DNA of 64,000 bases from Octopus vulgaris (lineage: Eukaryota): assembly GCA_951406725.2 (NCBI GenBank), contig OX597816.1, positions 107,446,001 to 107,510,000 on the forward strand, read 5' to 3'. This document shows, piece after piece, positions 1,001 through 28,660 of the stretch. The notes under the pieces were generated by a model that was given only the letters and a program-made list of their open reading frames with translations, was not told the DNA's origin and did no database searches. The stretch's first letter is position 1. Each line of letters starts with the position of its first letter. Made by a program: the position numbers and the translations under genes.

Positions 1001-1653
1001 ACGTATTGGGCTAGCCTACTTCATCGTCTGGTGGCGTCCACACAACACCTCCCCTTTTGAGTTTTTTAAACCCGAATTTATCTATTTTATTTCCTCGGTG
1101 AGAAACTGGCATATCGTTTTCTCTTAGCGTTAATTTCCACCATTTCTGTAGGTTTTCTCTTCCTGTTCGACCTACGTGTCGGTTCTGCTTTTGCTTGTGG
1201 TTCTGGGATCTGGAACAAATCATACCATAAATCCATTGGTTCTTCTAGCCTCTCTTAGTTTTTGTTATATCTTTTTTTAAAATTGGTTTAAATGCCTTCT
1301 GTGTTTATATTTGGTCCTTTTACCATGTACATCACATTACCCAGACGTCCAGTTATACTTCCTTGTTCCCAGTCCTGTTTTCCGTTACTATATATTTTAA
1401 AATACACTTTGTCACCTGTGTTAAAAAATTTCGTTTTTTTTCCCGAATTTTCTATTTTCTGTTTCCTGCTCGGCAACCATTTGTCAAAATAGAACAAATT
1501 TTTCTAGAAAACATCAAATCTGCGGGTGACCTATCTGCATTTGGATTCGGTGTTATTCTATACACCTGCAAAAACTTTGTCATATTTTTATCTTCAAGGA
1601 TTTCCCATCTGGTCTTCCTTAAGGCTCTCTTGAATGTGTCGACGAATCTTTCT
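1000..1653 (-). mobile_element. Gypsy/Ty3 LTR retrotransposon 3' fragment: integrase C-terminus, polypurine tract and start of 3' LTR
   Basis: ERFVDTFKRAL...FLQVYRITPNP...SPADLMF and FNTGDKVY...WEQGSITGRLGNVMYMV. Minus-strand AAAAGGGGAGG (1048-1058) is followed directly by TGTTGTG. Confidence 0.75.
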
Positions 1654-2420: not shown

Positions 2421-2422
2421 AC

Positions 2423-5525: not shown

Positions 5526-7200
5526 TATTTATTTACTACCCACTAGGGCGACATAGAGGAGACACTACAAAACATTGGGGACATAGAACATAACAATTAA
5601 AATTATGGAAAATGAATTTTTAAATGAAAATGATAATATGAAAGTGATGCTAACGGCCCCATCTGCCAGCACCACTTACCTGTCCTTCATTACCCATCAC
5701 ATTCTCCAATCAAAAACCATTCTTTTCTTATCATTTTCTCAACTATCCTTTCATATTCTTTTATCCTCTCATCCGAAAATATCATATTCCTCACTTTTAC
5801 ACCCTCTCTTTCACCCAGCGCTACAATTGTGTCTATTAGTTCCTCTGGCATCACCATATATCCCCCATCTTCTCTCTCATACCATAATTCAGAACCTAGG
5901 ATTCTTTTCGCATCCTCAGCGTCATCCCATTTTGCGTAACATAAAATATGGGGTTTGGGATCTTTTTTATTTTGTGTGTCTGCATTATTATTTTGTTTTG
6001 GTTTTCTTGTAGGCGGGGAGTGGGTGGAATTGCTGTTTGTAGGGGAAGGATGGGACTCAGAGGGTGTGGGTGGTGTTGGGGTTCAATATTGTTCAACTTT
6101 CTCCTCTTTCTTTTTTTTCTTTCCTCTACCCATTCGTTCTGGGCCTCTTCTTCTGTAGTTTCACACTCCACTGGATTCCGTTCTTCTTTATTTTCTTCTT
6201 CTCTTTGTGTCTCCATAACAATTTCCTTTGGTGGGGGAGAGCAGTAAGCTCTTATGTGGCCCCTCAGGCCACACTTATAGCACCTTGGTGCTCTGCCCTC
6301 CACCCATACTCTCATGACAATATTTCCCATGTTAATGTTATCTGTTATTCCTTCAATTGCACTCTCCTCCGCTTGAACACTCATTTCCAGCGACTTTCCA
6401 CGCCATCCCTCACTCTTTACAGTAGCATGTAAGATGTCTACCTCCTCTTCTATCTCTTTTATAACTGCTGCAGTGACCCATTCGCCTTCTATGTGGGGGG
6501 TTATCCCCTCCACCCTTATCCTTGTTGTTCTCTTATTCATATACGTTGGTAGTAAATATACCTTTTCTGTCTTTAACGCCTTAGCTGCCATTCTTCTTGC
6601 CATACTTTTACTTCCAAACTGTACCATAATTGTTCCGTATTCCATATCTCTCGCTACAAACACAATTTCCTCCTCCACTCTTCTTAATGCCTCCTCTATG
6701 TCTTCCATTTTTATTGTTTCCACTCTTTTGTTATCTTTTACGAATGTTCTGTATTTTATGACTCTTTCTTCAAACCATTCGCTACGCTTTTCTGGCGGTA
6801 ACAGTTTCACTTCGCCTCCCTCCTTCGTCATATATGCTTGATAGCCTGGTAACTTTTCCAGGTCTATCTCTTTTTCGTCTGTTTTTCTTGCTGCTCCCAC
6901 GTACGTTTTACCAACCTTAACGTCTATTTTCTTTACAGTATCAATCAACTCGTCCTCGGAGGTCGATACCTCCGATAGACTTTCGAAAAGTCTTTCTTCA
7001 TCCATCTCTCCCATTAGGGAGGGGCGGTCCATCTCCTTTTATCTCTCTCAATACAGACAGCCAACGGCCGACAGCCCAACAACAGTGTAACAAGGTCGTA
7101 TAAAAAACGTATAACAAAACGTACAATTCAACAGCAAATTCAAACAACAAATTATCAATAACTCACGCGTACTTGAAAAAAAGTTTTCTGAAGTATCGAT
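5526..7200 (-). mobile_element. ORF1-only (HAL1-like) non-autonomous Tx1-type element, about 1.7 kb
   Basis: The 5' end is at about 7200, ORF1 is open for 378 aa, and a short 3' region ends in the Tx1 tail motif at about 5530. No ORF2 sequence is present. Confidence 0.7.
5896..7032 (-). CDS. Tx1-type ORF1 protein (RRM-like region plus CCHC zinc knuckle), 378 aa
   Basis: Uninterrupted ORF containing VWVEGRAPRCYKCGLRGHIRAYC and a KKRKRRK basic patch. The C-terminus may be frameshifted. Confidence 0.75.
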   Translation of the reverse strand: MDRPSLMGEMDEERLFESLSEVSTSEDELIDTVKKIDVKVGKTYVGAARKTDEKEIDLEKLPGYQAYMTKEGGEVKLLPPEKRSEWFEERVIKYRTFVKDNKRVETIKMEDIEEALRRVEEEIVFVARDMEYGTIMVQFGSKSMARRMAAKALKTEKVYLLPTYMNKRTTRIRVEGITPHIEGEWVTAAVIKEIEEEVDILHATVKSEGWRGKSLEMSVQAEESAIEGITDNINMGNIVMRVWVEGRAPRCYKCGLRGHIRAYCSPPPKEIVMETQREEENKEERNPVECETTEEEAQNEWVEERKKRKRRKLNNIEPQHHPHPLSPILPLQTAIPPTPRLQENQNKIIMQTHKIKKIPNPIFYVTQNGMTLRMRKES

Positions 7201-7210
7201 GAACAAGTGA

Positions 7211-8100
7211 TTTCTTTATTACCCACAAGGGGCTAGCGAAGAGGGGGACAACACATCATGATTTGGGGTCATGAGACACAGATGAAAATTTACATATAAA
7301 TGATCTTTAAAAATTATTACATGAAATTGAAAACAAAATCGAAGAAATCGAATGATACACAAATTTTTTACAGCACAACATAAAAACGACACATGAAGTG
7401 GGAACACCAGGATTGCCGACCCCACGAGCCCTGTTTTTCCCACCGAAACTCGGCAGCCAACTTACAGCGTGTTCATGTGGCCCCTTTCACTCGCAGCAAT
7501 CGTGCCACACGTTTCCATCTTTTGTCAAACTCACACGCAGACAGACACCTTTTCTCTAACTCCACTTTTCTTTTTAGGTGGAACCTGAAAAAGGTCACCA
7601 AGGCGGAGCCAGAGATCATGGTGCCTGTCTTTACAACTTTCATTCTGGTCTTCCATATACACTCTTTCGCTACTGCTACTATACTGAGAAAGCAATGCTT
7701 ACCTTCACTTGTCAAAAAGCTAGGCGAGTCAATTTTTATAATTGTCTCAGCCGATAGCTGTACTCTTCTTCCGTCTGACAACAGGTGTTCTGCATACACC
7801 CACACGTCCGAAACTTCCGGACACTGGACAATAGCATGCGAGACTGTTTCCAGATCCCGCTCGCATCTTGGACAGTTCGATGGTCCACTCCAACCATGCC
7901 TTGTGAGTTTATCCCGAACGGGTAAAGCTCCTCTGAAACATTGCCAGGTCAAAGACTTCTGGAAGTTATCCAATGTCTTCGGCCCGAACGTCCTTCGGAA
8001 CAGGCTGTCTAACTGATTTCGATCGAGGCCCAAGGTCCTTCCTAAGGCATTGTCATTTCCGGCCTCTACCAACCTGCTATAGAAAGCTGCGGTGGTTCTG
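7211..8100 (-). mobile_element. Tx1-like LINE ORF2 C-terminus plus 3' UTR
   Basis: ORF 7473-8072 has WQCFRGALPVRDKL...CPRC...ETVSHAIVQC, paralogous to 2643-3398 and about 23820-24420. Tail motif TTTATTACCCACAAGGGGC (plus strand). Confidence 0.85.
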
Positions 8101-9070
8101 TTCGCTCTTCATGATAACCTGATCAAAGGTTACGAAGAAGGTATTGAAGCAAATCCAGTTCAACGAGTACCAGGCACATAGTGCGAGCACCCCGAAGCCC
8201 AAGTTTCAAATCTGTAGTGACTACTCAGTATCAACGATCAACTAGAGGAACACCGTCATCCAATGCCACCCCCATAGGAACTGATGCAGAAGCTGGAAAG
8301 TGGATACGGTTACACGAAGATTGACCTTGCTGATACCTACAACCAGATCAAACTGGCACCAGAGAGTCAACAAAGTCTAGCCCTCAGCACTCACTATGGA
8401 GCACTCCTGCAGCAACGACTCCCATTTGGAATCAGGTCAGCGCCTGGTAACGTCCAGGAGATCCTAACCAGTGATCTGCCTGGAGTGCCGTCTTCCAAGA
8501 CGATATGCTTGTCAGCGGGCAAGGCGCCAATGACCACTTGAGCAACCTGGGTCCTTTGCTCTCACGTCTGAACAACAAAGGACTCCGATGCCGTTGTAAA
8601 AAGTGCCTGTTCCCACAACCCTGTTGGAATATCTTGGCTGCACCTTATCGGCCAAAGGATTCGCGAAGGGATCCAAGGTCGAAGCAATCGTGAAAATGCC
8701 ACCTCCTGCAGACGTCTCAAGCTTAAAGTCTTTGTTTGTTTCAGTTCAGTTCTACGGGAAGTTCATCCCAAACCTGGCCACTACGGCCAAACCACTTTAT
8801 CTCTCAACAAAGAAGGCAACTCCCTGGAAGTGGGGAGATGAGGAACAAGTAGTGTCTGAACAGTTGAAAAGTTTTTCATCAGATCAAATCCCTGTACATT
8901 TCGACCCAGACAAGCCTCTAAAACTGGCTTGTGATACGTCCAACGTTGGAATTAGAGTGGTCTCGTTTCATCGCTATCTGGATGGAAGCGAGTGCCCAAT
9001 TCCCAATATGTCCAAGACACACATCTGCAGAAAGACACAACAGCCAAATACACAAGGAAACCCTAGCCAG
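8100..9070 (+). mobile_element. Gypsy/Ty3 pol fragment (RT and RNase H), degraded
   Basis: YTKIDLADTYNQI...QRLPFGIRSAP, LEYLG, VQFYGKFIPNLA...PWKWG and LKLACDTSNVGI. Confidence 0.85.
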
Positions 9071-9074
9071 TTCT

Positions 9075-9895
9075 ACAAATATAAATATAAAACGTAATAC
9101 TTTGACCACTTTATACATCTATGTACACTTTATACTTGTATACATCTATACATCACATATAGAATGCAAGATAAAATCCTGGATACATATTGCACAAAAT
9201 TATTATGGATTACTGCGGAGGATTTACCAAGGATGCATACACAGACTTCAAACTTTTTGTACAAAAGTGTACCTACGAAAATCAAAGCCAGTAACTTATT
9301 AATTTTTTTAAAAAAGACACCCTATTCCTATATTCTTTCATATTTTAAAAATAGCATTCGATTAATTATACAAATTTCACCCTCTCCATCTCTGATGAGC
9401 GGAACTATTGCCTGTCCACGTTTATCAATCTTGGATTTCATTATAAAGGCAATACTTTTGCGAAACGATCGTAAGATGCGTTAAATACTTAAACTTTTAA
9501 ACCGTCACACTTTATATATTTACAAAAAATCTTTGTGAAAAAATTTTTGATATTGATTTTCCTGCTATCATTTCACAATATATAATCGCTCGTATTAAAT
9601 GTTTAAATACTTTAATAATATTAATACTTTGACACTTCTATACAAAGAGCACTCATTTTAAATTCAGTATAACACATTCTCATAGAATATATTTAATTAA
9701 GGATATATATTGAGCTCTATATATAAAGAGCACTTAATACTGGATTTATTAAGCATGGAAAAGCAATATCTGGGAATATCACTTAAAGATATACAGATTC
9801 CTTCTAAAGACACATACTTATTATCCTCACTTCAGAAAACCAACGTCTTAATAAAAGAATGAGATGGAAGGCATTCTTTTATGATAAAGGAACTG
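9075..9895 (+). mobile_element. Penelope-like element 5' region (hammerhead-containing pseudo-LTR plus ORF start)
   Basis: Hammerhead at 9387-9478. ATG at 9755 gives MEKQYLGISLKDIQIPSKDTYL...(frameshift)RMRWKAFF, resembling the SLKNIPIP...RMRWKA N-terminus of Penelope ORFs. Confidence 0.65.
9387..9478 (+). ncRNA. Type I minimal hammerhead ribozyme
   Basis: CATCT-CTGATGA-[stem II GCGGAA..TATTGCCT / AGGCAATA..TTTTGC]-GAAA-C-GATC-GTA-AGATG. The catalytic core is intact, stem I is a perfect 5 bp, loop III is palindromic and the cleavage triplet is GUA. Confidence 0.8.
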
Positions 9896-9899
9896 TAAA

Positions 9900-10180
9900 A
9901 GTTTCGCGGAATATATTCCGCAAAACTTTTGACAAAACAATAATTTAACAGTTACTAGAAATACAGGAGGACAGAAGCTTGTGTGAAAAACTGGTTGGTT
10001 ACCTTTCAAATAATTGTATTATCGAAGGTAAAAAGTCCACTCGGCAAGGATAGTCTTTCTTATCCTATTGGCGACGCCACTTTGCTGTACTTTTTTCATT
10101 CACTCGCAAAGAAGATAAGTGATACTCCAGATAGGTTTTGATTGTTTTAATACAGACTTATCCACCCGAAAACTCTTTAT
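9900..10180 (-). mobile_element. LTR-retrotransposon 5' fragment with primer-binding site (tRNA-Ser-like)
   Basis: Minus strand reads ...CA-AAG-TGGCGTCGCCAATAGGAT (10062-10079), resembling the complement of a tRNA-Ser 3' end. Confidence 0.45.
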
Positions 10181-12205
10181 CTTTATTGCCCACATTGGCA
10201 ATAAACACAGAAGGGGCAACACAAAGACAAGTGGGAACACATACCAAATAAAAGATTGGTGTATGTTATAATCAATAATAAGATAAAGATGAGAAATGGA
10301 ATGAAGTTTCCTCAGCCCCACCTCTGAGTTACTTCATTTTTACCTCCGTTCATTTTTTTCTTTTTGAACCCGGAGCCTTCTAAAATATCTACTCCGTTCT
10401 CTTTCAGTAGAAATGTGTAGTTCATATTCCGTGGCATATTTTGCATGTCCAGATCGACTTGCCATACTGTAAGTCCTTTTATGAATTTTAAAATTTTCTG
10501 CCTTTGGTTCTCATCCAACAACAGGCAGCAATGCCACCCTTGCACGTTGTCGAACTTGCAAGTGTCCACTGCTCTAATGTCCTTCCACATTTTTTATTTC
10601 TTCACACAAATTTTTATTTGTGTTATCATATATCATTACATAGTTTCCTTTCTTCTTTTTCCCGGAGAAGAGGAGGTTGAATTACTTTTGTCTGACTGTG
10701 TTCGTTTTCATGTTGGAAAGGACGGGTAGATTCAGTGTCTGTAGGGAGCGGGTGTGAAGAAGAGGGTGTGGGTTTCAGTATTTATTTTACCTGGTTTCCT
10801 TTTTCTCTTCCTTTTCTTCCCTAGTGTCACCCATTCGCCTTCTGTTCCGCTTACTTCTGATTCTGTTGGTGATGGTACTATTTTCTCCTTTTCCCTTGCC
10901 GGTTCTTCCTTTTCCTTGTAGAGGGCAGTTTGCTCTAATGTGACCTTTCTGGCCACACTTGTAGCACCTGGGTATCCTGCCCTCTACTCTGACTACCTTT
11001 GTTGTGTCTCCAAGCACTATTGTTTCCGGTAACTCTTCTATTACATCATTCGGTTCCCATATCACGATATTTAAGGATTGCCCTTTCTAGTTCCTTGCTT
11101 CCGTTTTGGTGGCCTGGAGAACCTCCATCTCTTCCTCGTTACCAAGCAATACTGCGGCTACTATCCAGGCTACGTCGACATCCCGGGGGGGGGGTTTCCC
11201 CTCTACGTTGACCCTTATAGCATTCTTTCCCCCATATATTGGCAACATCACTACTTCCTCGTTTTTTAATATTTTTGACGAGTTCAAATTTGCACTGCCT
11301 ATATCATTAAATTGGACTTTAATTGTACCAAATTTTCTGCCTCTTGTTAAATACATAATATCCATCCTTCCATACGGGCCTTAGTACCTTCACTTGGGTT
11401 GTCGTCATCTCTTTAATTCTTCCTTCGGCCACTGAGTGTGTTTTATACTCTACAGTACATCTCGTTATTTTATCAATTATTGACACAGTTACTTCCACTT
11501 TTGTTCTGTCCCTTTTTATCATTTTTGGAGTATTTCTTCCACTCTTTAAAATCCACATTACTTCCTGATATTTTAGCCACTTCTGCGAAGCTTCTTTCAT
11601 TCCTGTTGACCCACCAAGTGTCCGACTGCTCAGAATCGGACACCTCAGTGTAGCTATTATCTGAGGAGGAGGCGTTGAAAGGTGATATGCGAGGATTTTC
11701 GTTTGTTTTGTTGTGTTATTTGTGTTGATTGCCGTGATGTTGATGACAGATTCTGGAGAATGCGGTTCAAGTGTGTGTGAACATGTGTGGAAGGTTGTGC
11801 TTGTATTGTGGTGTGTGTCTTGGGACGGAAAGGATCAGGGAAGTGTTTTTCTTTTTTTTAAGCCACTGCTTCCCATTTGTGATCTGTTGTGGGGTTGCCT
11901 TGACTTTTTGTGGTAGTGTTTGTGCTCAATTCATTTTCTTTGTCAGTAAATTCTTGTTCATTGTTGTACATTTGGGTGTCCTTCTTCGTGTTTAACGTAT
12001 ATTTTGGGGTTTTTTTCTGTGTTCACTTCCTCCTGGGAAACATTTCTTGGTACATCTCATTAAGTTTGTTGATATTGGGGACGTTGTTTGTGTTTTGGCT
12101 GGAACCCACAGTTTTAAAAACGTGTAAATAAATTACACAAGATGTTTCAAAAAAGTTCAATTCACCCCTTAAAGGGGGAATTTCTAGACTCGATACTTCC
12201 CCTCT
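10180..12205 (-). mobile_element. ORF1-only Tx1-type element, about 2 kb, degraded ORF1
   Basis: ORF pieces 11319-11600, 11087-11365 (YLTRGRKFGTIKVQF), 10787-11065 (CYKCGQKGHIRANC), 10732-10956 and 10312-10590 lead to the tail motif CTTTATTGCCCACA at about 10181. No ORF2. Confidence 0.7.
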
Positions 12206-12235
12206 TAAGCAGGTTCAGAGCTGATAACACACATA

Positions 12236-13125
12236 TTTCTTTATTGGCTACTGAGGGCCCAACATAGAAGGGACGGCACAAGGATGGTCAACACAATGTG
12301 GGGACATAAAACATAGACAAATGAATGGGATGAATTATTAAATGAATGAGGATGAAATGGCTACTGAACCCCACTTTCACTAGTACCATTTGACTGCTTT
12401 TTTTTTCATTGTTTATCATTTTGGTATAAAAACAAATACTTACCATATTATATAGGTCACCATATTCCACTACTGGAGGTAGTGTCAAATCTCACCCCCT
12501 AGTTCTATTTTTTTCCTAAATGTTTCTTTTAATTTCTTAAAGTTTTCTGTGTCAATAATGACACATTTCATGTCTGCTGGGTGGGTACTCCACTTCTGGT
12601 ATTTTAACTTTTATTGCTGTTTTTATTTTATTTATCTTTTTCTCAATGGCCGAGCTCTTCATATAGGTCATAATATATGTCCAGAGAGGTTTGTCGATTA
12701 AATATGTCTGTTTGTGTGTCTATTTGTCTGTATACCTACTGGGAGAAGCGGGGTTGTTTGCAGTGATTTTTTTTTTTTATGGGGTGTCTGCAGAGGTGAG
12801 ATGGGTGTTCTGTCTGTTTGTGTTTTCTGCATGTTGAATAATGTGTCTTGTTTGATTTCCTACTTTTTCTTTTTCTTTTTTTTTTTTTTTTTTTTTTTTG
12901 ACGTTTTTGGAGGTGAGTTTTTTGACTCCTTCCTCTTCCTGCTTGGAACTTCCTGGAATTCTTCGATTGGATGTGTTGTTTCTGTGTTTTCGATGTCGTT
13001 GTTCTTCTCATTTTGGTTTTCAGGCATTTGGTTATTAATTTGGGGGCAATTCGCTTTTATATGTCCCCTCCTCCTACAGTGATGGCAGGTGGGAGGTCTT
13101 CCCTCTATCACTACTCGTAGCTTTA
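12236..13125 (-). mobile_element. 3' half of another ORF1-only Tx1-type element
   Basis: VVIEGRPPTCHHCRRRGHIKANCP and a poly-K patch, then a short 3' region ending in a tail motif at about 12236-12285. Confidence 0.65.
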
Positions 13126-13275
13126 CATCTAATAACTAATGGATGATTTTTGTTTTTAATCACACGATACAGGTTAGTTTATGAGCATTGCTTAGATTAG
13201 ACTATATTTATCAGTTTGCACGGGGCTGAATTGCCTAGATCTACTGTGTTATACAGGAAGTTATGTTATTCATAT

Positions 13276-15625
13276 AATAATAATAATAAACATTGTGTAC
13301 AGTGCTCAGGTGCACTACAACTCATCTAAAGTGCATATATAATCAGGTGTAGTTTCGACGGATTTCGGAAAGCATGAGGGCCTTAAAGGATGCAGTGTCA
13401 TGGCAGTCAACAACTGACGCAGGCAGTTTATTCCATGCTTCAGCAACTCTGAGCGTGAAGAAATGTTTCCGAAAGTCATGGGAGCTGTGTTGTTTTCTGA
13501 CTTTGTAGGCATGTCCACGTGTGTTAGACACATGGAGATCAAAACGGTGTTCAGTGTTGTTATTGGTGAGGTGGTTGACAACTTTGTGGGCGTTTACCAA
13601 GTCCGTTGCCAGACGCCGGAGCTTCAGTGAATCCATGCCCAGGGAAACAAGGCGCTCAGAATATGGTGTCTGATGGAGGGTATGCGTTTGGTTGCACGTC
13701 TCTGAACAGATTCCAGGAGGTCAATGTTCTGAGCAAGATAGGGGTTCCAAACTAATGATGCGAATTCCAAGTGTGGTCGTACCATAGCCGTATACAGTTT
13801 TAAATAGATGGCTGGAGAGCGGCTAACAAAAGTCTTGCTGAGTGATGCCAAGACACCCTCGGCCTTCTTGACAATTTTAGAGATATGCTTTGTCCAACGC
13901 AAATCACTGCTGACAGTGATGCCTAGGTCACGCTCGCAAAAGGATTTCTTGATATCAGTGTTGTGGAGGGAGTATGTGGACGCAGGGTTTTTTCTCCCAA
14001 AATGCATGGTGGTACACTTGTCCACAGCCAGTTTCAGTTGCCAGTCTGTGATCCATTGCTGCATTGTGTCCAGGTCTGATTGCAGGAAAGAGCTGTAGAC
14101 AACAGGATCTGTCCTCTTGATTTCAAGGTAGAGCTTGATGTCGTCTGCATATTTTAATACTGTGGCATTCTTTAAATTTGCATCTATGTCATTAATGTAT
14201 GCCCCAAACAAGAGGGGACCAAGGACAGATCCCTGTGGTACACCCGATGACATCTCATATGGTGTAGAATGCTGTCCTAGAACTGTGACTACCTCCTTTC
14301 GGTTGAGAATGAAGGATTTCAACCAGTTAAAAAGGTCATCCCTCACACCCGTTGCAGAGAGTTTCACCATAAGCCTTTTGTGTGGCACAGAGTTGAAAGC
14401 CTTAGCAAAGTCAAGGTAGACAACATCCACCCATGAGCCACTGTCAGTGATCTGAGTAATGTCCTCAAGGAACTCGACAAGCTGATCACTGCAGCTGGAG
14501 TTAGGGACAAATCCATATTGTGAGGGTCGGATGAGACTGTGTGAGCTCCAGAAGTTCCAAAGTGTTTCTCTGACACACGATTCCATCAGTTTTGCAATAC
14601 AGCTAGTGAGACTGACTGGGCGATAGTTGACAGGTTATGTGCGGTCGCCCTTTTTGAACAGAGGAATGACACTGGCAGTTTTCCACTGTTCCGGAGTAGC
14701 ACCATTGTTGAGACAGTACTGGAAGAAAATAGAGAGCTGGTGTAAAAGGAAGTACCTGCCACGTTTGAGAAGCAGGTATGTAACTCCATCAAGACCAGGG
14801 GGGGGGGCATAGTTGCGCTTATTTTGAAGGTGACGTCGCAGTATTGCAGGTGTAAATTCCATAGTTGTTATGGAATTTGCTGTTAGAGATGGTGAAGATG
14901 GTACATTTTGATTTTCAACAGTGAATGTTTGCATAGCACTCGGCAATGAGTTCTGCGCATTCCTTGGGGTCGTCAGTGATCTGGTTTGTGTGAGGGTTGC
15001 GAAGAGGGCCCACTGGAGAGTGAGGTCTCTGCTTCGAATGCACATATTTCCAGAAAACCTTGCTGTCAGGATTGGCTGCTATGCACTGTTCAAATTCAAG
15101 CACTGCTTTTTTTGTCACTTGCTTGAGATGGTTGGAAGATTTATTCCGCTTCTTCCTGTTGGTGTCTGATTTATGCAACTTGTATTCCCGTTCAGCAGTT
15201 CGATGTTCCTTCCTGGCAAGTCGGACCGCTGAAGTTTCCCAAATTGCACTTTTGGGGCGGTTCTTCTTTTTCTGTTTACATGGCACTGATGCTGCACATG
15301 CTGCCCATATTGAGTCCAGGATACTCTGGAGTATAGTATTCACATCTCCAGAGTTGTAGAATTCACGCCAGTTTGGGTGCTGTAGTTCAGTGTGGTACAG
15401 GTTCCAATCTGCTCTCTTCCAATCGAAGGAAGCAGATTGGAGATGGTTCAGGTTTTTGTTGTTGCCTGCAAGAGCCAGATTGGCGATGATCATAGCATGA
15501 TCAGAGTCGCCTAGAGGTTCCTCCGTAGTGCAATTCATAACCGCTTCAGGAGTTGTGGTGAAGAGCAGGTCCAAGGTGTTGTCGCCTCTTGTTGGAGAGG
15601 TGACTACTTGTGACCAGTTTGAGTC
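13276..15625 (-). mobile_element. CR1-clade LINE, 5'-truncated ORF2 (end of APE, RT, C-terminus) with 3' stem-loop and (TTA)n tail
   Basis: PTRGDNTLDLLFT...LGDSDH, VYLDFAKAFNSVPHKRL, GVPQGSVLGPLLF, YADD, MVRPHLEFA, LESVQRRATK and TRGHAYK...RVAEAWNKLP. A GTGC-ACCTGA-GCAC hairpin precedes TTATTATTA. Confidence 0.9.
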
Positions 15626-15978
15626 CAGTGAATTAAAATTTTTCGGAATGTTTAGTCGCTAACCTGTCTGAGCAAGCTTAAATGTGTTTTCCCTATTAAA
15701 ACAATGGCGGAAAAAGCTGAAACTGTTTCACAACATATGGACAAGTATGAAGCACACAATTTTTATGACTTGTGTGCTGTTTACTGGATTGCATTTTTCA
15801 TACAGTCAGTAATTTCTTGGGATAAATGGTATGAGATAAAGCAAGAGATATCATTAAGAATAATGTAAAGTTAGAGAGTATGGAAAGTAACTATAAAAAC
15901 TATTATTTAATTTATTTCACTTCAGCTACATCTCAAATGAACATTAATGACCATTAATCTAATAAAGTATTAGTTTAA

Positions 15979-17451: not shown

Positions 17452-18834
17452 TAGTTAAAATTGCTTTGTAACTATGCGGTTTTGGCTTGATCCCATTACT
17501 AGGCAGTTTGGGCATGTGTAATCTACCAGAGCGTCGGGTAGATCAATTCTTTGTAGGTAGAATTTGGTTGTCGAAAACTCTTTGGAAGTTTGTTGAGAAG
17601 TAAAATTATGTAACTTTGTAAGAGAACTGAAAAAAAAACAAAAAAACTACGTCATAAACTGTCCTTTCAAATAATTTGTTTTGCATTGAATTCCAGAAAC
17701 TCTCTCTTGATTTTCAGTGCTGGAAATACAATAAACCAGCAATTAGCTCGTTGGAAGCATGTAGCCAACAATGTTATTGCTTATCACCTGTGAAATAAAA
17801 CGTGTGTCTGCCACTCTGGTACAACACAGCCAACTTCATACAGTTACTTCATGTAATAAAAAAAAGTGTTAGTGTGAAGGGAAACAACTTAATAAACATG
17901 TTTGCAAGGGAAGTAACTCTTTAAAATAAGAGTGACGTTTAAAACCGTCAAGGCAAGGAGACATTATAATACGCACACATACATATATGTGTATAGTTAT
18001 AAATTATACTATTTTATATAGATTGTTAACGTTAACAATACTCAGAAACAGGCTAGAATCGAAGTGCTCAAATTGAGCTAAGTTCCAATTTATAATTTAA
18101 GTGGAGGCAATGGGAACGGGAAACTAGAGGAACATGACCTATTATCCAGCAGAATATTCAGTATATATGTGTACTTTCTTCAGCATTAATAAAGCAAAAT
18201 AAAGTTCGAAATAATAGTAGTATTAAAAACATACAAGCATATAAATATTTAAAAACACGCAAATATTTAAAAATACGTTGGCATTTTAAAAATATATAAA
18301 CACATAAATAGATATAAAGAACGTCGATATGATATAAGACAGTGAATTATAAATTCACACGATGTGATATAAAGGAATAAAAATTTACAAGTGAAAACAC
18401 AAGCATATAACCTATATAAAACACGTAGGTATTTAAAAATATTTAAAAATATATATATCACAGGTGCCAATACGTTGAATCGAACCCATAATGCTGTATT
18501 CTCTATCCTACTTTCGAATGTCTCAGTCTGGTTGCTTTTTCATCATCTAATAATACTGCTTTCTTGTTTCGATTCTCCTCTTTATCTGCAAGTTTCACTC
18601 TGATAACTCCTTTCATTCTTGCTATCAATTTTTCAATTTCTACGCTTTTCTCGTATCTCATATACGTTCTTTCGTATTTTCCTTTACGTGGCCTTCTTTC
18701 AACATTCTCTGTATATAATGACGATGAAAATGACTTTCTACCCACCAAAGTAGAAAGTTGCATTTTACTGTTCAGTTTGTATCTTTTCTACTGTTCAGTT
18801 TATATATTGTTTTACTATTCGGTTTGTATCTCTC

Positions 18835-21800
18835 TTTTTTAAGCTTCCAGTAGCCGGGTCCTCTCTTAAGCGCACTATCTCCAGTCTACACTTAACCATT
18901 CTATGGTAAGTGTAGGACGCCTGAACAAGCTGTGGACAACTTAAGCTAGCCTTATCTTATGCTCTTATAACTATCCTATCTAAGTAAGATTTGAACCATC
19001 TGTCGCCACTAATCCAGGTCCACTCTGGGACGTCCGGATGGTCAAGTCTGTAACGATCTGCTAGCTGAAACCGCCCGCAGGTAGCAAAGTAAATCGTAAG
19101 ATACTATCAGTGGCTGGTTCTGTTCGGCTAATCCTGCAGAATCAGCAACCTTTCTCACAGAGACATATTCCGACGTCAGCAAGCAAAGGTTTCGGCGGAC
19201 GACGGATTTTGGTATCAGTCTCACCATCTGGTGAAGACTTAACCCTCCGTCCGCCGGCTGCTATATAAGAAGGAAGATGACGTAGACTCGGGGAGATGAA
19301 GCATTCTTCTAGCCCCCACGCGGATGGCCGTGTCAAGCCTCTCAAGTATTCCTCTTGGCGGCAGTACCTGCACTAGACTATAAAAAAGTCTAGGCAGGTA
19401 ATATTGCTGGAGCAAGAGGAATTTTTGTCGGGGTTTCAGCGGAGCCCTGCACATTTTATTTATGTCCAGGGACACCTGCACCACTGAATCTAAACCAAAC
19501 TACCGACTTGAGATCGAAGTCCACTTGGGGATGTTTACACCTAGATAACATACTCTCTCTCTCTCTCTCTCCCGGTTCTACCTTTTTAATAGTAACACCA
19601 TCGATATTCGGCGGGGTGTTCTCATTGACGAGGTAGGACTTGCCGCAGATAGAGAACCACGCACACTTACCGACATTAAGCCCCAGTCCAACCGCGCGAT
19701 AGAACTCCAAGCATCTGTCTATAAGAGCCTGGAGACCATCGCGCGATTTCGCTTGGATTCAGGGGAGTTACCTGAAGCATGCGTTTGGCGACCATCTTTG
19801 AAAATAAACGATATACCGCAGAACATATCGTGATTGGTCGCCAATTTGCAAGATCGTATGGGTCGTCTGATCTCTTGGGTATGAGAATCGACTTACCCCG
19901 CTTCAGGATATCGGGTACCTTACCCGCCAGCAACATGCAGTTGCATATATTTGCTAGAACAGCTGGGTCCATCGCTTTAATTTCACATATAGTGATACCG
20001 TCTGGACCCGCCGCTGAGGAGATCTTCATCTTACGTCTACTTATCTTAATCTCCTCCACGGAGAACGGACTCAAAATGGAGTCGCTCTCAACCTGGGAGG
20101 AGGAGGGGTAGTTCTTCAGATCAACCTCAGGGCCTGGAGCAGAAAGCCTCCCTTTATAAAATTCCTCTATCGAATAGATTGGAATAGGGCATTCCTGCTC
20201 CCTGTTTTCACCTAATACAACTGCAAGGAGCTTCTTTCTATTCTTTTTAAATAGATCTTGATGGCGGGCGTAAGCATGACGCTTATCCCGTCGCCTAAGT
20301 CTAGTGTTTCTATTATTGTTATTATTACTATCACTAACTAGATTCCTCCTGTTGGTGGTTACTTCTCTACGCGATTCATATTGCTCCACCCAGTCCTCTA
20401 CAGTTTTCTCAAATGAGCCCCAAGCAGCCGCGGTCCCGTCCTCCACGGGTTCCAATAGGGCCTCGGAGAAGACTGCAGACCAACGGGTATGCCCGGGACA
20501 TGCAGCATCGAGGCAGCGATCCTTCCAGTCAATACTAGACTGGGGTTCTCCCCCGATTTGTGATTGGGAATTGGTCGCGGACTGCTCTGACCCTTGATGA
20601 CTCGTACGAGCCTTTTTGGCCAGGTCAGCCCTTTTCGATCCTACCTGTTTGGCTGTTTTGCCCGGTAAGAATCGTGCAATGGCAGCATTGATCCGCTTTA
20701 CCCCTGTCTTCTTCAGCTCCGACTTCTTTTCAACGAGGACCACTACTTCCTCGTCGGACCAACAGCCCCTGCGTCTTTGGCCTATTGCCTCAGCAGCGGC
20801 TGCCCGATCGGCACGTTTCTTCGCAATTTGCTCTAAGCGAGCAGCAATCCTGCGGGCATTCGCCACTACAGGATGCTTATGCCGAACGTGCTGCGATCGA
20901 CCTATAGCCGTCAAAAAAGAACGGCTGCAGTGGTCACAATCAAAGGAGGCTAGAGCTGGACTAGGGGCAGGTGCTCTAAATGCACTGCCATCGCATCTAC
21001 CTGCGTGACACCTCATAGAGTGGAGGTGTCCGCTTTCCCTATCACATTTAATGCACTTGTAGGCCTAATACCATGTCTACAAATAACATGCTCCCCCCAA
21101 TCATGGGGGGGGGGGAGGAGAAGCGCAGAGGACATAGCGGACAGGCTATGGAGCATGACGCGCAGGGAATTGTAAGTGAGAATTTACCCCCAACTGGAGT
21201 GGGGCTTGATACCCCCACTACCTCCTCTTGATCCATTTCTAAATTAAGAGAATGAATGGGGAGGTCCCTAGCGACCCTATCTCGGTCCGTCTCTAGATCA
21301 AAAGACCGGACTTCATCGATGGGGTCATGTGCTAGGTCCAGTGGGAGTTGATCTCCTCTCACTATCAGGGAATGGTCCTTATATTCTAATCTAAATATAT
21401 TTTTCCTATTTTTATAATACTTCAGTGTCGGACGCAAAGTTAAGCGCCCGACACTAGTCTTGTCAAAGCCTATCGAGCCACTTGATCTTACTTGCACCGG
21501 AGATGACTCATTGTCCCGTGCAAGGGAGGGTCGTAATTCGGCCGACCGCATTTGGGTATTGCAGTCAGCCTGACGTGTGGGCCCCATCCCGGACCCACAG
21601 GCCACCAGTTTGGCGGCGCCTGGCTGCCGTATGTTTCTTAACTTATTAGTATTGGAATACATGTCACTATTCTTAGCGGCATTTAACTAGGGATCATGGC
21701 CGAAACGATAAAGTAGAACTTAAAGGAGGCGCATTACCAGTCCTACCAAGAAAAGCAAGCTAAGCCACTAACCTAATCTCAAAGACCTTATGGCCACCCA

Positions 21801-22825
21801 CTCAAGTCCGGAGACAAACAGCAAGCCCCCCGAGAACTATTACCCCCAGGAAATTCCTGGGGGACTTGTCTAGGCTAAGCGGGGCCCGTGAGTGTATCCA
21901 CCCCAGACCTGAAGCGGTGATCAAGAACGAGCCACCCTAAGATAAGTCCTAAGATAAGTCCTATTAAGGAAACCTCAACCGGTGTGTGAGGCGATAAACC
22001 ACACTCAAGGGCAAATATAGAAGATACGGCTAAATTCCCTCGTCACAACAACCGGCTAGACCATTAACATCAAAAGGGCGCCCATCCCTATGGTAGTCAC
22101 CCCCAAAATGGAGGCAAGAGAAAGGGCCTTCACTCTGTACTGCTACAAGACAACTGCCCGACTGTAAGAGCCGGACAGTCCCCCATCTACAGCCCGTGAA
22201 GGGCTCTATTCTATAACACTGCCGCTGGGTACCTAGCTCACAGGCCCCTCCACACCAGCACAGGAGGAACCGGCGATCCCCCACACCGGAATCAACCAGA
22301 AACCCCGGCCCTACATAAGCCCAAGACTACAACTCACTGGCTCCATAAAAGAGCCGCAAACTTCACTTTATTGTCCCCAAGGGAGAACCGCCCACTATCC
22401 ATCACACGCAAACAAGAGAACTAACCGGGTCACTAATGACCAACAAGGACTCCGAGGGTTCGGCCAGCGGCCGCTCAACTAAACTAGCAGGGAGGCATGC
22501 ACCCCCCTATCAGAATCGCCCAAAATCCGCTAGCTCCCCACCAAACTAAATTGGAACCGCTTTGGAGAAGGAAGGACACGTTTAGTTTGTCCAATGCGAG
22601 GTTTTTATCCGGCATTGCGCAAAGCATATCCGGCATCGACCCCACATGGACGTAAGCTCTCTTACCACGCCAAGGTAGTGTCCAAAAGGGTGAAGCCTGG
22701 CAGTGCATCCACCTGCCGAGTAAAAGACAGTGAGCAAAGCCCACTGAATCCCGACAGGTCATAACATACCAGACCTACCTGTTAATGCATCCACCTCAAA
22801 AGAGGTCATAAGAAACAGGCCCCAC
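18835..22825 (-). mobile_element. R2 non-LTR retrotransposon (three zinc fingers plus Myb, R2-A-like), internally deleted
   Basis: CPLC.., CIKC..HAGRC and CDHC..HVRHKH fingers. Myb WSDEEV...FLPGKTAKQV. RT SAAGPDG and ILIPK...NWRPITI. Later GLGLNVGKC and APLKPRQK. The 5' end joins 28S at the R2 site. Confidence 0.9.
19676..21016 (-). pseudogene. Largest remaining open segment of the R2 ORF (zinc finger, Myb, RT N-terminal domains)
   Basis: 446-aa ORF. RT motifs stop after about 19750, where the catalytic YADD region is deleted. Confidence 0.85.
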
Positions 22826-22859
<34 letters not shown>

Positions 22860-22990
22860 ACTTGGTTGAGACATTCAGAGCACTGGGAAGAAATCACATC
22901 TCGTCTGTGCGGCTCGGCCGCCTACGGATGCTCTGTTTTAATTAGACAGTCGGATTCCCCCGGTCCGTACCAGTTCCGAGTCGACCGTTG
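22826..22990 (-). rRNA. 28S rRNA: 28S rRNA fragment (orphan) ending at the R2 insertion site
   Basis: Minus strand reads GAACTGGTACGGACC...GGGGAATCCGACTGTCTAATTAAAACAGAGCAT...GATGTGATTTCT..CCAGTGCTCTGAATGTC...GCGGGTAAACGGCGGGAGTAACTATGACTCTCTT, the conserved LSU core. About 13 nt appear deleted after GAATGTC. Confidence 0.95.
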
Positions 22991-23590
22991 CTGTCTCTTC
23001 CGGTGCTTCTTCCCTTCTTTCCTTCTCTTTTGGTTGGCACTCGGCCCTGATATGTCCCTTCAACCCGCAGTTGAAGCATCTCGGCGTTCTGCCTTCCACG
23101 TGGACTATGAGTCGCTCTCCTCCGCCAACATTTATGGCTTCTGGGATTTCCTCGAGTGTAGTCACCTCGGCTTGAATTGCCATTGTCAAGCTCTGGCCTC
23201 TCCACCGGTCTTCCTCTACCACTGTTTTGTTTTTCCGGTGTTACTGCTAGTGAACTATTTTCTTCACCTGACACAGGTGAGTAGGAGATTGGTGTATCCA
23301 TTTCCATTTTTCGCAACAGGTTGGCTTAAAACAGCCTTTCAAAAAATTGGCTTAAAAAGCCTTTCACAAAAGATGGTTTCAGAAGCCTTTTCACAAAAAT
23401 TGGCTTAAAGAGCTACAGGATAACAATAATTCCCCCGCAGGGGGGAATTTCAACAAATAGCTTTCGAAGAAAGCAATTAAGTTCTTTTTTTAAAAAACAA
23501 TAATAATAAATCACGGTAACAATAGCAGTATTCACAGGAGAAAATTGACACGTACCAAATTAGTCTAACGAAGAAGTCGGCGTAACATGC
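22991..23590 (-). mobile_element. Internally deleted 5' copy of the Tx1-like element at 23597-28660
   Basis: The 5' UTR and MDTPISYSPVSGEE are fused at about 23225 to VVEEDRWRGQ...CFNCGLKGHIRAEC, near-identical to about 27550-27790 and 28290-28660. Confidence 0.85.
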
Positions 23591-23596
23591 TTGATT

Positions 23597-26500
23597 TTTT
23601 ATTACCCACAAGGGGCGAACAAAGAGGGGACAACACAATCTGATTTGGGGTCAGACTATCGGATGATTTTACATATATGATAAAATTAAAAATTTTAATA
23701 CAATAAAATCGAAAAAATCGGATGATAGGACAGACTGGAAGACATTACGGATGGAGGAGGGGTTAGCTCGGACCCCACGAGCCCCGCCTCGCCACTGATA
23801 CCTTGGTTTCAACCTGTCCCACATTTATGTGGTACCATTCATACGCAACATCTGTGCTACATTCTTCTATCGTTTTTTTTGAACACTTTCTCAGTCAGGC
23901 ATTTTCTCTCCAGCCCTATTTTCCTTTTCAGGTGGAAGATGAAGTAATTCATCAATCCAGGGCCAGAGATGAAATTGCCTGACTCTATACCTTTCAGCCT
24001 CGTCTTCCAAATCACCTCTCTCGCAATTGCAACTACACTGAGAAAACAATTCTTACCTTCTTTCAAGAGGAAATCCGGTGGGTCAATTTTTATAATAGAC
24101 TCAATCGACAGCTGTACTCTTCGTGTGTTTGACAACAGTTGTTCGGCATAAACCCACACCTCTGACACCTCCGGACATTGAACAATAGCGTGCGGGACGG
24201 TTTCCCTATCCCACTCGCTTCTTGGACATGTCGGATTGCCTCGGCTACCATGCCTTATGAGTTTGTCCCGAACAGGTAGAGTTCCTCTGTAACACTGCCA
24301 TGCCAGAGACTTCTGAAATTTGTCCAGGTTCTTCGGCCTGAATGTACGTCGGAACAGACTGGCCAGCTGATTATCATCGAGACCTAGGGTTTCCCCTAAA
24401 GTATCGTCACATTTCGCCTCTACCAGCCCTCTATAAAAGAATGTGGTGGAACCCCCACCGCAGGCGTTTCCCGAGCGACGGAATAGCGGGAGAGTCTTGC
24501 AAAACTCCGTAAACCATGTGCTCAGTTTCTATCTTCGATTCAACCAGGTTTCTCGTCCACCGAAACTAGTGAACTTGGGAAACGTCAATTTTGCCAGCGG
24601 AGACCACACCCGTTCACCATCAAGGTAGAGCCACAGATGCCTCAACCTCAGCGCATGTCTGCGCATCAACAGCCAAGGCATCCCTAGCCCACCCTTTAAC
24701 AGTTGTTGACAGCAAGTAGAGCGTTTCACAAGCGGTTTCTAGCCCCTCCGCAAAAAGTGAAAGAGCTGTCTTTCCAGCTTGGTCAACCACGAATCAGGGC
24801 AAGGAACGACGGATAGGCGATAGGTGATGACCGATGCGATAAACAGATTGGCTACCTCCGCCCTTCCTTTCAGGGATAGCCACCGCCAAGACCAGGTCTT
24901 GACTACTGCAGCCACCCTGCCCGATACCTCGACCTAGTTCTTTTCTATTTGGAGGTCTGGTCCAAACCAAACCCCTAGCAACTTAATCCGACCCTCCGTC
25001 CAACGTCCCACGACGCTGTCGGGAGGCATCGACTTGTAGGTGATCCATTTCGGTTACGATGATGGTGATGTCATCCGCGTAAGCTGACACCGATTTTCCA
25101 CAACCTGGCTGTCTCGGGATGCCGCTCAATTTTCGCAGTGATGGCTCAAGAGCCATTACGTACAAAAGCGGGGAGAGCGGACACCCTTGACGAACCGAGC
25201 GTTTGATGTTGAACGCCTTCGAAAAGAAGCTGTTCACCCGAACTACCGAGTCGATATTGTCATAAATCTGAATGATCCTCCTGAGGAAGCCAAGGCCCAG
25301 GCCGAACTGTACCACAACGGACACCAGGTAGCGATAGTCGACCCTATCAAAAGCTTTACATTGGTCTAAATGGACAAGTGCCCCACCCTTGCCAGAATCA
25401 CTATTAAACCCCTCTAAAGTGTACCGCATAAGATGGAGATTATCCTGAATGGTTCTGCCGGGAACGGCACATGTCTGTGCCTCCCCGATCAGTCCATCCG
25501 CGACACGCGCCAACCTTTTCGATAACACTTTGGCTAAAATCTTCAACTCTGTGTTTAGCAGTGATGGGCCGGAAATTATCAATACAATCCCCCTTGTTCG
25601 GGTCCTTTCTGACAAGCGTCACTACTCCCCGGCGCACAGATCTGGGAATAAACCCGTTCTGCTGCCAGTTCGCGTAGACATCTGTCAATAGGTGCCCGAA
25701 AAGTCTGGCATACTCTTATATAACTGATAGGGTAGACCATCCAGACCTGGCGCCTTACCCGCGCCGCAGTCCGCCATCATCTCAGCCACCTCCTCAGGCG
25801 TGATCGGCCCTTCATAGCTCTCCGCGTCTCGCCCGGATAGGCGCGGCAGCTCGTCGAGGAGGTCCGCAAAGTCCCTCCTAGTGTCCGGTCCGCCGTCCCC
25901 ACCAAAAAGCTGAGCGAAGTGCTCCTGAAAGGCCTCACACATCTCCTCGGGTTCGTCTATCAACTTACCTTGTTCGTTCGTCAAAGATCGAATTGTGGCA
26001 TCATTACCACGTTGAGCCTCCACCACTTGGGCCCATCCTGCGGCGTTGATTCCCTCACAATTCACTGCGCGGATCCTAGCCCTGACAATGCAGCCAATGT
26101 GTTTGGCCTCGAGGTGCTGGTTTAACGCCAGTCTCTTGGCCGTCACCTGAGCCGCAGAGCCAGTTTTCATGGCTTCCTCTAATTCCTTAACTTGAGTTGA
26201 TCCCCTCCTAGCCTCTCTAGCCACTAATCCTATGCTATATCTAATAGACTCGAATTTAATGGCCCGCTTGAGAGCATACCACCATTTATTATTAATGATG
26301 GCACCAGATAGTGCCCTCTGAATCAAAGTCCTAATCCCGTCTCTGTACTCCTTAATCGCCAAAAGGGACGTATTAAGTTTCCAATAACCGGAGCCTCTAT
26401 TATATACCTTATCTATGTCAAGCTTACAGGTGACCATTTTATGATCACTGTAGCTGACCGGGTAAAACTGTGGACACTTAGCTATTTCTCTATCTGCTTT

Positions 26501-28660
26501 TCTAATTAGTAATCTGTCTATGTACGACCTGGAAGATCCGTCGCTATTTGACCATGTCCACAATGGAGAGTTCGGAAATTCCAACCTATAAGGATCTGCC
26601 AGCTCAAAGCGTCTTAGCAATTCCAGGAAGCCATTGTTACCCTTTCTATCTGTCCACGAGCCAACACAATCTACATCCGCCTTGCAAATTGTGTTATAGT
26701 CTCCTAGCACAACTAATGAATGTGAAGTACTAAGAAACTTCTCCAGCTCTCGAAAATACTCACTTTGCCCAGTTTTTGGGGGTGCATAAATTGCAACCAG
26801 TCTGATAACTTTACCGTTACTGAACGTCAAATCCATGTCGCCCAGCCTACCTTCTGGATCTGAAAAAATTAACTTTTCTCAAAAACCCGGTTTCTTTTTA
26901 ATAGGACCAACACCCCACTCCCGCTGAAAGGACCGCCTGGAGAGAAAAAAACTCGACAGCGGGAGTAGATCTCTTGGCCCCTCTAACCGGGTTTCTGTAG
27001 TAACAATAACAGCCAAATTCCGCGACCTGACATCATTAAGGAAGCGACACTGCTTCCAGCTTGATCTGAGGTCACGCACATTTATGCAACCAACATTAAT
27101 GTGAGACATTGCTTACCTCAGTATCATTGGTTTGGCGTTCCTTCATTCTCTTTTTCTTTTTCACAGGCTCGTGGCATATTTGGATGTAGGCCCTCGTAAA
27201 TATATGGAGAAAAATCCATTCTTAGAGAGCCTACGTCGTGGAAAAATTCGGACTTAATCCGCCCGTAATCCATCCGGCCTATCCTGTAGATATGAAAGTC
27301 TTTTGAAGTCGTTTTTTCAACTCGTTTGGCAGTTGGGATAACTGCCAAATGGTTGAGCAGTCTATTATTTGAGGCCTTTATGGCCATGTATGTGTTTTCT
27401 TTCTTTTTTAAATTCACTTTGGGAGGGGTGGACTGTGTTTTTTTTTTCTTTTTCTTAGAAATTGTCGACCACCCCTCCTCTCTGTCTTTCTCTTCACTTT
27501 CTTCCGTTGTTGGTGATACAACTTTAGGTACTGGTGCTTCTGTTGGCATCGCTGCTGTCTCCTCCGGTGCTTCCTCCCTTCTTTCCTTTTCTTTTGGTGG
27601 GCACTTGGCCCTTATATGGCCCTTCAACCCGCAGTTGAAGCATCTCGGCTTTCGGCCTTCTACGTGGACTATGAGTAGCTCTCCTCCGCCAACATTTATG
27701 GCTTCTGGGATTTCCTCGAGTGTAGTCACCTCGGCTTGAATTGCCATTGTCAAGCTCTGGCCTCTCCACCGGTCTTCCTCTACCACTGAGGCCTGGAGAA
27801 TATTTATTTTTTCCTCCGGCCTAGGGTTATTGCTGCCACTAAGCAAGTGGCATCCACCTCAGGGGGATATTTATATTTATTTTTGAGGTTCTTCTTCCTA
27901 TATATATTGGGAGAACCACCTCCTCTTATCTCAGTGTCTCCGACGAGTACCTCTTTGCTGCCTCCTCCGTTTTAAATCTTACCTCCACCGTACCGAATCT
28001 TTTTCCTCGGTTGATGTAGGTGATTTCTTGTAAGATTGTTTCGAGGCATTTTTCCACTTTGTTCTCTTCAATTCGCTGTATCATTTTTTTTTCTATACTG
28101 CATGTTTTGTAAATTATTCTTATCCTATTCACAGCATCTGTCTCTTCCTCTGTTGCAGCTACTGTTATTTCTGTTCCATTCCTTTTTAATACGTGTGTAT
28201 ATTTCTCCAGGTTGGACCTTTCTGTATTTATTTTCTTCACTTTTTTTCCCGCTACCTCTGCGAATTTCTTTGGTGAGGTAGCTGGTATATTTCCCTTTTG
28301 TTTTTCCGGCGTTATTGCCGGTAGACTATCTTCTTCACCTGACACAGGTGAGTAGGAAATTGGTGTTTCCATAATGAGTTGGCTAAAAAGCCTTTCAAAA
28401 ATTGGCTTAAAAAGCCTTTCGCAAGAGATGGCTTCAGAAGCATTTTCACAAAAATGGCTTAAATTGCCGCAGGATAACAATAATTCCCCCGCAGGAGGGA
28501 ATTTCAACAACTAGCTTTCGAAGAAAGCAATTAACAGTTCTGTTTTTTATTTTTGAAAAACAATAATAATATTCACAGTAACAAATAACAGTAATCACAG
28601 AAACAAATTCACACGTACCAAAGTAGTAGTTTAACAAACAAACCACCAGCATAACATGCT
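23597..28660 (-). mobile_element. Near full-length Tx1/L1-clade LINE (ORF1 with zinc knuckle; ORF2 with APE, RT and C-terminal domain), multiple frameshifts
   Basis: ORF1 spans about 28372-27124. ORF2 starts at 27109: INVGCINVR, IYAP, VLGDYN, SYIDRLL, SDHK, GYWKLN, KAPGLDGLP, DQCKAFDRV, SVRQGCPLSPLLY, AYADD and GGLGMP. The tail lies at about 23597. Confidence 0.92.

Follow-up and report, generated by a model that had tools for sequence, protein, structure and literature searches.

A 64,000-nucleotide (nt) stretch of the Octopus vulgaris genome (contig C3, positions 107446001-107510000, in an assembly of 2.8 Gb and 227 contigs; hereafter the window) contains a dead copy of R2, a site-specific retroelement of ribosomal DNA (rDNA), which is joined to a short piece of 28S ribosomal RNA (rRNA) sequence and embedded in remnants of Tx1, a long interspersed nuclear element (LINE). 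Read 5′ to 3′, this composite consists of the 5′ end of a Tx1, a piece of Tx1 open reading frame (ORF) 1, the 28S piece, an R2 part of one subfamily (alpha), an R2 part of a second (beta) and a Tx1 endonuclease piece, probably followed by another ORF1 piece whose match is weak. All six pieces are joined sense-to-sense through internal joints, and the four joints for which both donors are known show overlaps of 0, 1, 1 and 3 nt. We see about an even chance that this patchwork arose by template switching or RNA joining during Tx1 retrotransposition, and we favour such RNA-level joining over the displacement and subsequent deletion of rDNA, which is the less probable of the two but a serious contender. 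The features of the composite are as follows (RT, reverse transcriptase; UTR, untranslated region; ZnF, zinc finger; HDV, hepatitis delta virus).

18503..18787, minus strand: likely C-terminal piece of another Tx1 ORF1 (weak; one match, 36% identity, E 5e-4)
18836..19074, minus strand: Tx1 ORF2 endonuclease fragment of a different, high-copy Tx1 family, overlapping R2 by 3 nt
19072..19752, minus strand: second R2 piece (subfamily beta), late RT, without endonuclease or 3′ UTR
19752..22826, minus strand: R2 5′ part (subfamily alpha), with leader, broken ORF with three zinc fingers, Myb and start of RT
20630..21143, minus strand: region coding for ZnF3 (frameshifted), ZnF2, ZnF1 and Myb
22574..22832, minus strand: predicted HDV-like ribozyme (hand-drawn pairings P1 7/7, P3 4/4, P2 6/6)
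22826..22989, minus strand: 28S rRNA fragment (Rfam match and alignment to the genome's own 28S)
22986..23224, minus strand: Tx1 ORF1 zinc-knuckle piece fused to 28S, 95.3% identical to the neighbouring Tx1
23225..23590, minus strand: Tx1 5′ end and start of ORF1, joined bluntly to the zinc-knuckle piece across a gap of ~500 nt

The 28S fragment and the R2 copy

The 28S piece is supported by an Rfam match to LSU_rRNA_eukarya (22955-22777, minus strand; 98 bits, E 4.6e-22), the sole Rfam match at the gathering score within the window, and by alignment to the genome's own 28S, to which it is 89.9% identical over the interval -181 to -4 (numbered from the R2 site); it carries a private deletion of 13 nt. 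An earlier reading, made without database searches (the sequence-only reading), had proposed a fragment of about 165 nt that ends within a few bases of the R2 site and is fused at its far end to Tx1 ORF1. All of this stands: the piece measures 164 nt, stops 4 nt before the site, runs directly into the R2 leader and ORF, and at its other end meets a zinc-knuckle piece that is 95% identical to the neighbouring Tx1. A 10-nt microhomology suggested at the latter joint fell away, since the chimera had been compared with the Tx1 neighbour; the overlap with the true partner is 1 nt, and would rise to 4 nt had the donor and the neighbouring Tx1 differed at one base.

No further rDNA (external or internal transcribed spacer (ITS), 18S, downstream 28S, intergenic spacer) was found in the window or in the 40 kb to its left; such parts may have been lost through deletion, as for an rDNA orphon. 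The absence of downstream 28S had been remarked upon before, and none was indeed found, but this is uninformative on how the piece arrived, because the last ~1 kb of the R2 copy is missing and the downstream 28S with it. The position outside rDNA is confirmed: the true rDNA array lies on contig C20, in units of 18.36 kb, seven of which matched the target patterns. One of these units carries an intact R2 of 4,750 nt (P0001; L034:3616-8365, about 24.066-24.070 Mb of C20), with exact 28S junctions, three zinc fingers and an ORF of 1,276 residues, which belongs to a different family from that of the window.

Judged from its protein sequence, the element in the window is an R2. In an RT tree of 28 rows it groups (100/100) with its own family and with the rDNA-inserted P0001, and no grouping with a non-R2 clade was seen. 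The best matches of its ORF among solved structures are R2 proteins (9nl3, 9dou and 9nl2, 157-140 bits, against 67 bits for 8gh6/8ibw); we take the two sets to be A-type and D-type, respectively, partly on the basis of PMC13188248. Lineage A is defined by the fingers ZnF3, ZnF2 and ZnF1 (CCHH, CCHC, CCHH), the number of fingers alone not being defining, according to PMC13188248. The copy carries this very set: ZnF3 (CCHH, 21143-21073), intact in P0001 and here split by a frameshift, ZnF2 (CCHC, 21055-20993) and ZnF1 (CCHH, 20938-20873), followed by Myb (20761-20630). It most likely belongs to lineage A. The earlier proposal of an R2-A lineage in this species is supported by the fingers and by structure scores of lineage-A type. 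In the tree, the 14-row group that unites the copy with all six three-finger proteins has moderate support (90/90) and contains no named A-D references; a separate 11-row group holds mostly proteins with no finger or one.

Like the lineage A elements R2Tg and PlaMe R2, the copy combines CCHH-CCHC-CCHH fingers with Myb, gives its best structure matches there, meets 28S 4 nt from the canonical site and has a predicted HDV-like ribozyme that uses upstream 28S. Unlike them, it lies outside rDNA, is dead, is a mosaic of two subfamilies and lacks the RT core, the endonuclease and the 3′ end. The fingers and Myb of the sequence-only reading are present, but its R2 ORF is broken and truncated, with 440 nt of the RT core gone (including the YADD motif) and neither endonuclease nor 3′ UTR; the C18 copies and P0001 have a single ORF with RT and a C-terminal restriction-like endonuclease. 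The copy is unable to retrotranspose on its own, and its protein is only 63% identical to that of P0001. Nor does R2 reach 18835, as had been thought: similarity to R2 ends at 19072, and the span 18836-19074 belongs to the endonuclease part of a Tx1 ORF2, 86% identical to a high-copy Tx1 family.

Sequence comparison further indicates that the copy is a mosaic of two R2 subfamilies. Upstream of 19752, the alpha part is 89-96% identical to the copy at C9:113.36 Mb and 78-85% to that on C26, while downstream the beta part is 92-96% identical to the C26 copy and 83-88% to C18 copy 2. The two meet with a 1-nt overlap after the 440-nt gap. None of the 10 other R2 copies compared has this switch, so a naturally recombinant subfamily that suffered a simple deletion is not supported, although the case is not fully closed, as the closest 5′ relatives (C9, C29) have no 3′ part.

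Dispersed 28S-R2 relics in the genome

Each search scored 40 candidates and loci were counted in the fetched stretches, so the number of 28S-R2 loci is a lower bound. Upstream 28S abuts R2 at at least 16 other loci on 11 contigs, which makes the window one of at least 17 loci with a 28S-R2 relic, and 38 of the 45 matches to the downstream target are dispersed outside the array. The idea of a special capture into a trap therefore loses its footing, since such relics are common. In 12 of 16 comparable loci further parts of the rDNA are present, 10 of them including spacer from beyond 2 kb after the R2 site; many collinear deletions are seen even in loci that are 98-99% identical.

In the R2 family of the window, copies that keep their 3′ end mostly continue into the exact downstream target, and the C18 copies end exactly there; the family was therefore site-specific. 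This speaks against a family that had lost its specificity and carried the 28S piece as its own 5′ head, an explanation that we regard as very improbable. It would account for the many dispersed copies (53 matches), and non-specific R2 families have been published (PMC5035012). However, the length of upstream 28S differs between loci, with 41 nt at the shortest and over 9,000 nt at the longest. We also rejected a 28S-derived head as a trait shared by the family: the common start was the edge of the query, and other loci run on into 28S.

Young ectopic copies of R2 or rDNA (C9:109.88 Mb, C1:149.69 Mb and L220) were inspected for target-site duplications, and none was convincing. R2 elements of different families stand in tandem at C18, C6 and C5. 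The genome holds several lineage-A-type R2 families, namely the intact P0001, a second autonomous-type family now represented by relics only, and non-coding derivatives. Lineage A is the R2 group used for rDNA-targeted gene insertion (PMC13580325).

Among the non-coding forms, a derivative of 1.77 kb with no long match to the R2 ORF sits at the R2 site in copies at C1:149.69 Mb (L047-L048), C1:41.39 Mb, C9:109.88 Mb, L217, L218 and L237. It is likely non-autonomous, in the manner of short internally deleted elements (SIDEs). At C1:149.69 Mb it lies within a displaced unit that starts 1.45 kb ahead of 18S and reaches +1716, an extent resembling that of one pre-rRNA. A degenerate duplicate of the R2 target region of 28S is present in the rDNA spacer itself (L031/L032, about +2080 to +2280 relative to the R2 site), and an older form of this duplicate may house some of the R2 relics at C18 and C7. 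At C29:25.635-25.702 Mb (L099-L103) we observed a tandem array whose unit comprises a LINE RT piece, 200 nt of 28S and an R2 fragment; this is a second kind of LINE/28S/R2 chimera, amplified in tandem.

Formation of the patchwork

The predicted ribozyme bears on the state of the molecule that was copied. Its P1 uses 7 nt of upstream 28S, which places the predicted cleavage at about -11; the pairings were defined by hand, and the minimum-energy fold that was computed cannot display pseudoknots. The core motif is common to the window and to six of the seven other R2-type heads tested. Tandem and ectopic R2 heads at C18, C29, C6, C22, L215 and L218 keep 5-9 nt of 28S, so mature R2 RNA appears to retain only 5-10 nt of it; published R2 cleavage sites lie 9-36 nt upstream (PMC3774820). 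Since the retained heads match the predicted P1, the 164 nt of 28S in the window require an uncleaved transcript or DNA. The earlier suggestion of a co-transcript or a DNA fragment across the 28S-R2 junction as the source of what was copied into this locus is supported.

A dispersed family with a different head was also observed. Its head consists of ~45 nt of 28S across the R2 site (about -10 to +36); an R2-type ribozyme core comes next, and the copies break off into unrelated flanks after 50-450 nt. It accounts for 10 of the 29 dispersed target matches that were fetched (L206, L209, L213, L221, L223, L224, L225, L227, L228 and L230). L220 is a non-coding relative of 1.6 kb with 28S flanks of ~10 nt and ~25 nt, outside rDNA. 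A head of downstream 28S has been published for an earwig R2 (PMC3774820).

On the reading that we favour, the Tx1 RT would have switched between RNA fragments, or copied fragments that were already ligated, and among these would have been an uncleaved 28S-R2 co-transcript. We infer that joining took place at the RNA or cDNA level, with an enzyme from Tx1 and not from R2, and that the molecule had escaped cleavage by the R2 ribozyme. Comparable joints recur elsewhere. At C5:22.37 Mb, a collinear Tx1 ORF1 (residues up to ~192, then from ~235) encloses the 3′ piece of an R2 together with 149 nt of downstream 28S; at C6:94.58 Mb the R2 3′ end runs straight into the middle of Tx1 ORF1; 28S leads directly into Tx1 ORF1 at C12:71.54 Mb; Tx1-like sequence and the start of a Tx1 ORF1 flank a piece of R2 leader at C11:75.48 Mb; and on C18 a piece of rDNA spacer passes straight into the start of Tx1 ORF2. 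That four or five other loci have sense Tx1/R2 or Tx1/28S joints speaks in favour of template switching or RNA joining.

Tx1 was found within 10 kb of nine of 53 R2 relic loci and of none of 20 arbitrary 10-kb controls (Fisher p 0.046), in eight of these nine on the same strand as the relic (p 0.02); the window, the C20 array and three duplicate stretches were set aside for this test. Three apparent R2 matches in the control stretches were rejected, as they belong to a distant LINE rather than R2. This LINE (L166, L175 and L179; 24-32% identical to R2, best match P0028) occurs in three of the 20 arbitrary 10-kb stretches and is probably very abundant.

The locus works like a LINE template-switch chimera, although we do not class it as such. 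Template switching or RNA ligation was proposed for human 28S/LINE-1 chimeras (n=18, median 269 nt, 83% sense), which are described together with U6/LINE-1 chimeras in bioRxiv 10.1101/2025.02.02.635956; they likewise join short sense 28S to a LINE of the L1 group, and the 28S of the window falls within their range of 50-482 nt. They differ in that the 28S of the window brings R2 with it, has LINE sequence on both sides and about six donors, and lacks a target-site duplication and an intact LINE 3′ end. R2 template jumps occur in vivo according to PMC3414825, which also describes Drosophila R2/R1 hybrid SIDEs. These resemble our locus in that R2 is fused to another site-specific LINE and in the choice to be made between template jump and recombination; they are propagating families inside rDNA, whereas ours is a single dead copy outside it with Tx1 as partner. 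No published Tx1-R2-28S chimera was found in a literature that mostly excluded subscription journals and did not cover supplements.

Several observations weigh against RNA-level joining. No target-site duplication was found at four candidate 3′ ends around the composite, and no intact Tx1 3′ end closes it; either could have disappeared subsequently. The result of the co-location test is marginal: its Tx1 criteria date from after an initial inspection, the C18 slice had been positioned next to Tx1 and there were only 20 controls. Published LINE chimeras have two parts, that of the window six. Of the 16 comparable loci, 12 are larger stretches of decayed rDNA, and since collinear deletions occur even in loci that are 98-99% identical, deletion alone can make joints of this kind, for which the tandem R2s of different families would offer a substrate at the alpha/beta joint. 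Private substitutions amount to 0.4-2.1% in seven pieces and to 11.9% in the endonuclease piece, whose close donor is unsampled, and they do not date the joints. Finally, the authors of PMC3414825 judged recombination likelier than template jumping for the R2/R1 hybrids.

Dispersed rDNA copies, or orphons, can carry R2. A stretch of rDNA with two tandem R2s may thus have moved as DNA into or beside the Tx1 nest, where later deletions fused its remains to Tx1; we consider this a real possibility, if a less probable one than RNA-level joining. The examples in this genome share with the window a 28S-R2 junction outside the array, decay and collinear deletions, and C18:79.8 Mb, with 18S, ITS, 28S and tandem R2s inside a same-strand Tx1 nest, represents an intermediate. 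No failure of the ribozyme would be needed, and the neighbouring Tx1 copies in the window are internally deleted as well. On the other hand, the window retains only 164 nt of rDNA, fused directly to Tx1 coding sequence, and the displaced rDNA would have required four or more deletions across boundaries that left no boundary intact, two of them nearly in register. Indeed, both same-family joints skip forward by only 440-510 nt, for which a random join between tandem copies has a chance of ~10% each (a rough estimate). Furthermore, displaced rDNA gives no reason for rDNA or R2 to share the strand of Tx1, and leaves the R2-28S insert inside the collinear ORF1 at C5 unexplained. A decayed rDNA unit, which had been named as a finding that would refute the earlier reading, is favoured by the comparable loci and disfavoured by the lack of other rDNA in the window and in the 40 kb to its left.

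It is hardly credible that the patchwork is an artefact of assembly. Among the matches listed, no contig from the sequencing runs bridges either the joint at 19072 or that at 19752. In contrast, contigs of four out of four runs, under three organism labels, bridge the boundary at 18836 with 0 differences (one run may be the source of the assembly), near-identical contig pieces extend across the R2 leader, and every piece has private changes that set it apart from all other copies examined.

The Tx1 nest and a possible piRNA role

The first 29 kb of the window form a heap of retroelement remnants, nearly all on the minus strand. Between 1 and 29 kb this strand carries 9.8 kb of Tx1, 3.8 kb of R2 and 2.0 kb of matches to other LINEs, against 0.5 kb on the plus strand, and none of the Tx1, R2 or other LINE elements of the pile has a match in the 40 kb to the left of the window. 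Besides the composite, the nest contains the following (LTR, long terminal repeat).

23587..28648, minus strand: neighbouring near-complete Tx1, with a 9-nt word duplicated at both ends (likely target-site duplication)
180-611, 1671-2021, 2658-5400, 6229-8126, 10171-11663 and 13043-13129 (span 180..13129), minus strand: further Tx1 copies and fragments
13379..15658, minus strand: LINE remnant with RVT_1 and Exo_endo_phos_2 (Pfam), in the orientation of the nest, which we take to be of CR1/L2 type
8600..9094, plus strand: RT/RNase H fragment of an LTR retrotransposon (Pfam RT_RNaseH_2), in the opposite orientation

The match at 18503-18787 is to the stretch that continues Tx1 ORF1 at the left edge of the window. 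The gap of ~500 nt in the Tx1 5′ piece is absent from all other matches scored. A single Tx1 interrupted by the R2 piece was rejected for the window, as the flanking Tx1 pieces come from different families, and so was the targeting of 28S by Tx1 itself, as inspection by eye showed no match to rDNA at the Tx1 3′ junctions that could be read in the piles.

The sequence-only reading had connected the shared orientation of the neighbours with a trap, but there is a simpler cause for this orientation. A related Tx1 family has a fixed insertion site with a duplication of ~19 bp; its 3′ junction could be read in four of nine copies, and the ORF1 of a host Tx1 was seen downstream in three of the nine. 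Target preference in the Tx1 clade has been published (PMC4494074). Since Tx1 inserts into Tx1, same-strand nests arise without a PIWI-interacting RNA (piRNA) trap or selection. A young high-copy Tx1 family (L091, L092; 355 candidates, two copies 98% alike) is inserted into a short dispersed repeat with a duplication of ~16 bp. Other same-strand piles of Tx1 with R2 or rDNA were observed at C5:22.36-22.38, C6:94.56-94.61, C11:75.46-75.49, C18:79.79-79.85 and C9:113.35-113.37 Mb.

A piRNA role of the locus is nevertheless possible. The nest could be a single-strand piRNA cluster in which the R2 and 28S pieces were kept by selection as an archive, a proposal that concerns retention, is compatible with either route of arrival and seems to us unlikely. 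The uniform strand of the pile agrees with it, as do the similar piles at C6, C11, C18 and C5. Class 1 piRNA clusters of the oyster show a 149-fold enrichment of R2, and its class 4 clusters have Tx1 among their most abundant elements (PMC6128900), a parallel that makes the piRNA idea plausible but less new. Like such molluscan clusters, the pile in the window is a one-strand accumulation rich in both element types, but its strand uniformity is explicable by Tx1 targeting. Fixed-site insertion would build these nests without selection, the piles consist mainly of Tx1 and R2, whereas controls carry other LINEs (7/20, against 0/20 for Tx1), and R2 relics are found by the dozen away from such piles. 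In flies, the origin of antisense R2 piRNAs is being investigated (bioRxiv 10.1101/2025.04.30.651568).

By itself the locus matters little, being a dead R2 relic among many and more ordinary than had been proposed. The recurrent sense joints of Tx1 with R2 or 28S, in contrast, suggest an exit route for rDNA-restricted sequence, and this is the part most worth following. If the nests also made piRNAs, this would help to explain how site-specific elements come under piRNA control. A bolder version, which we think still less likely than an archive kept by selection, is that Tx1 repeatedly captures uncleaved rRNA-R2 transcripts and deposits them sense-aligned in nests that it targets itself, and that these are read from the other strand as piRNA sources; one site-specific element would then build the archive against another that is otherwise untrappable.

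Two further repeats were noted in the window. A young repeat of 500 nt (16000-16506) recurs with 96-99% identity at at least 39 other places among the matches scored, and 48474-49142 holds 3.5 tandem copies of a short repeat unit of 184 nt.

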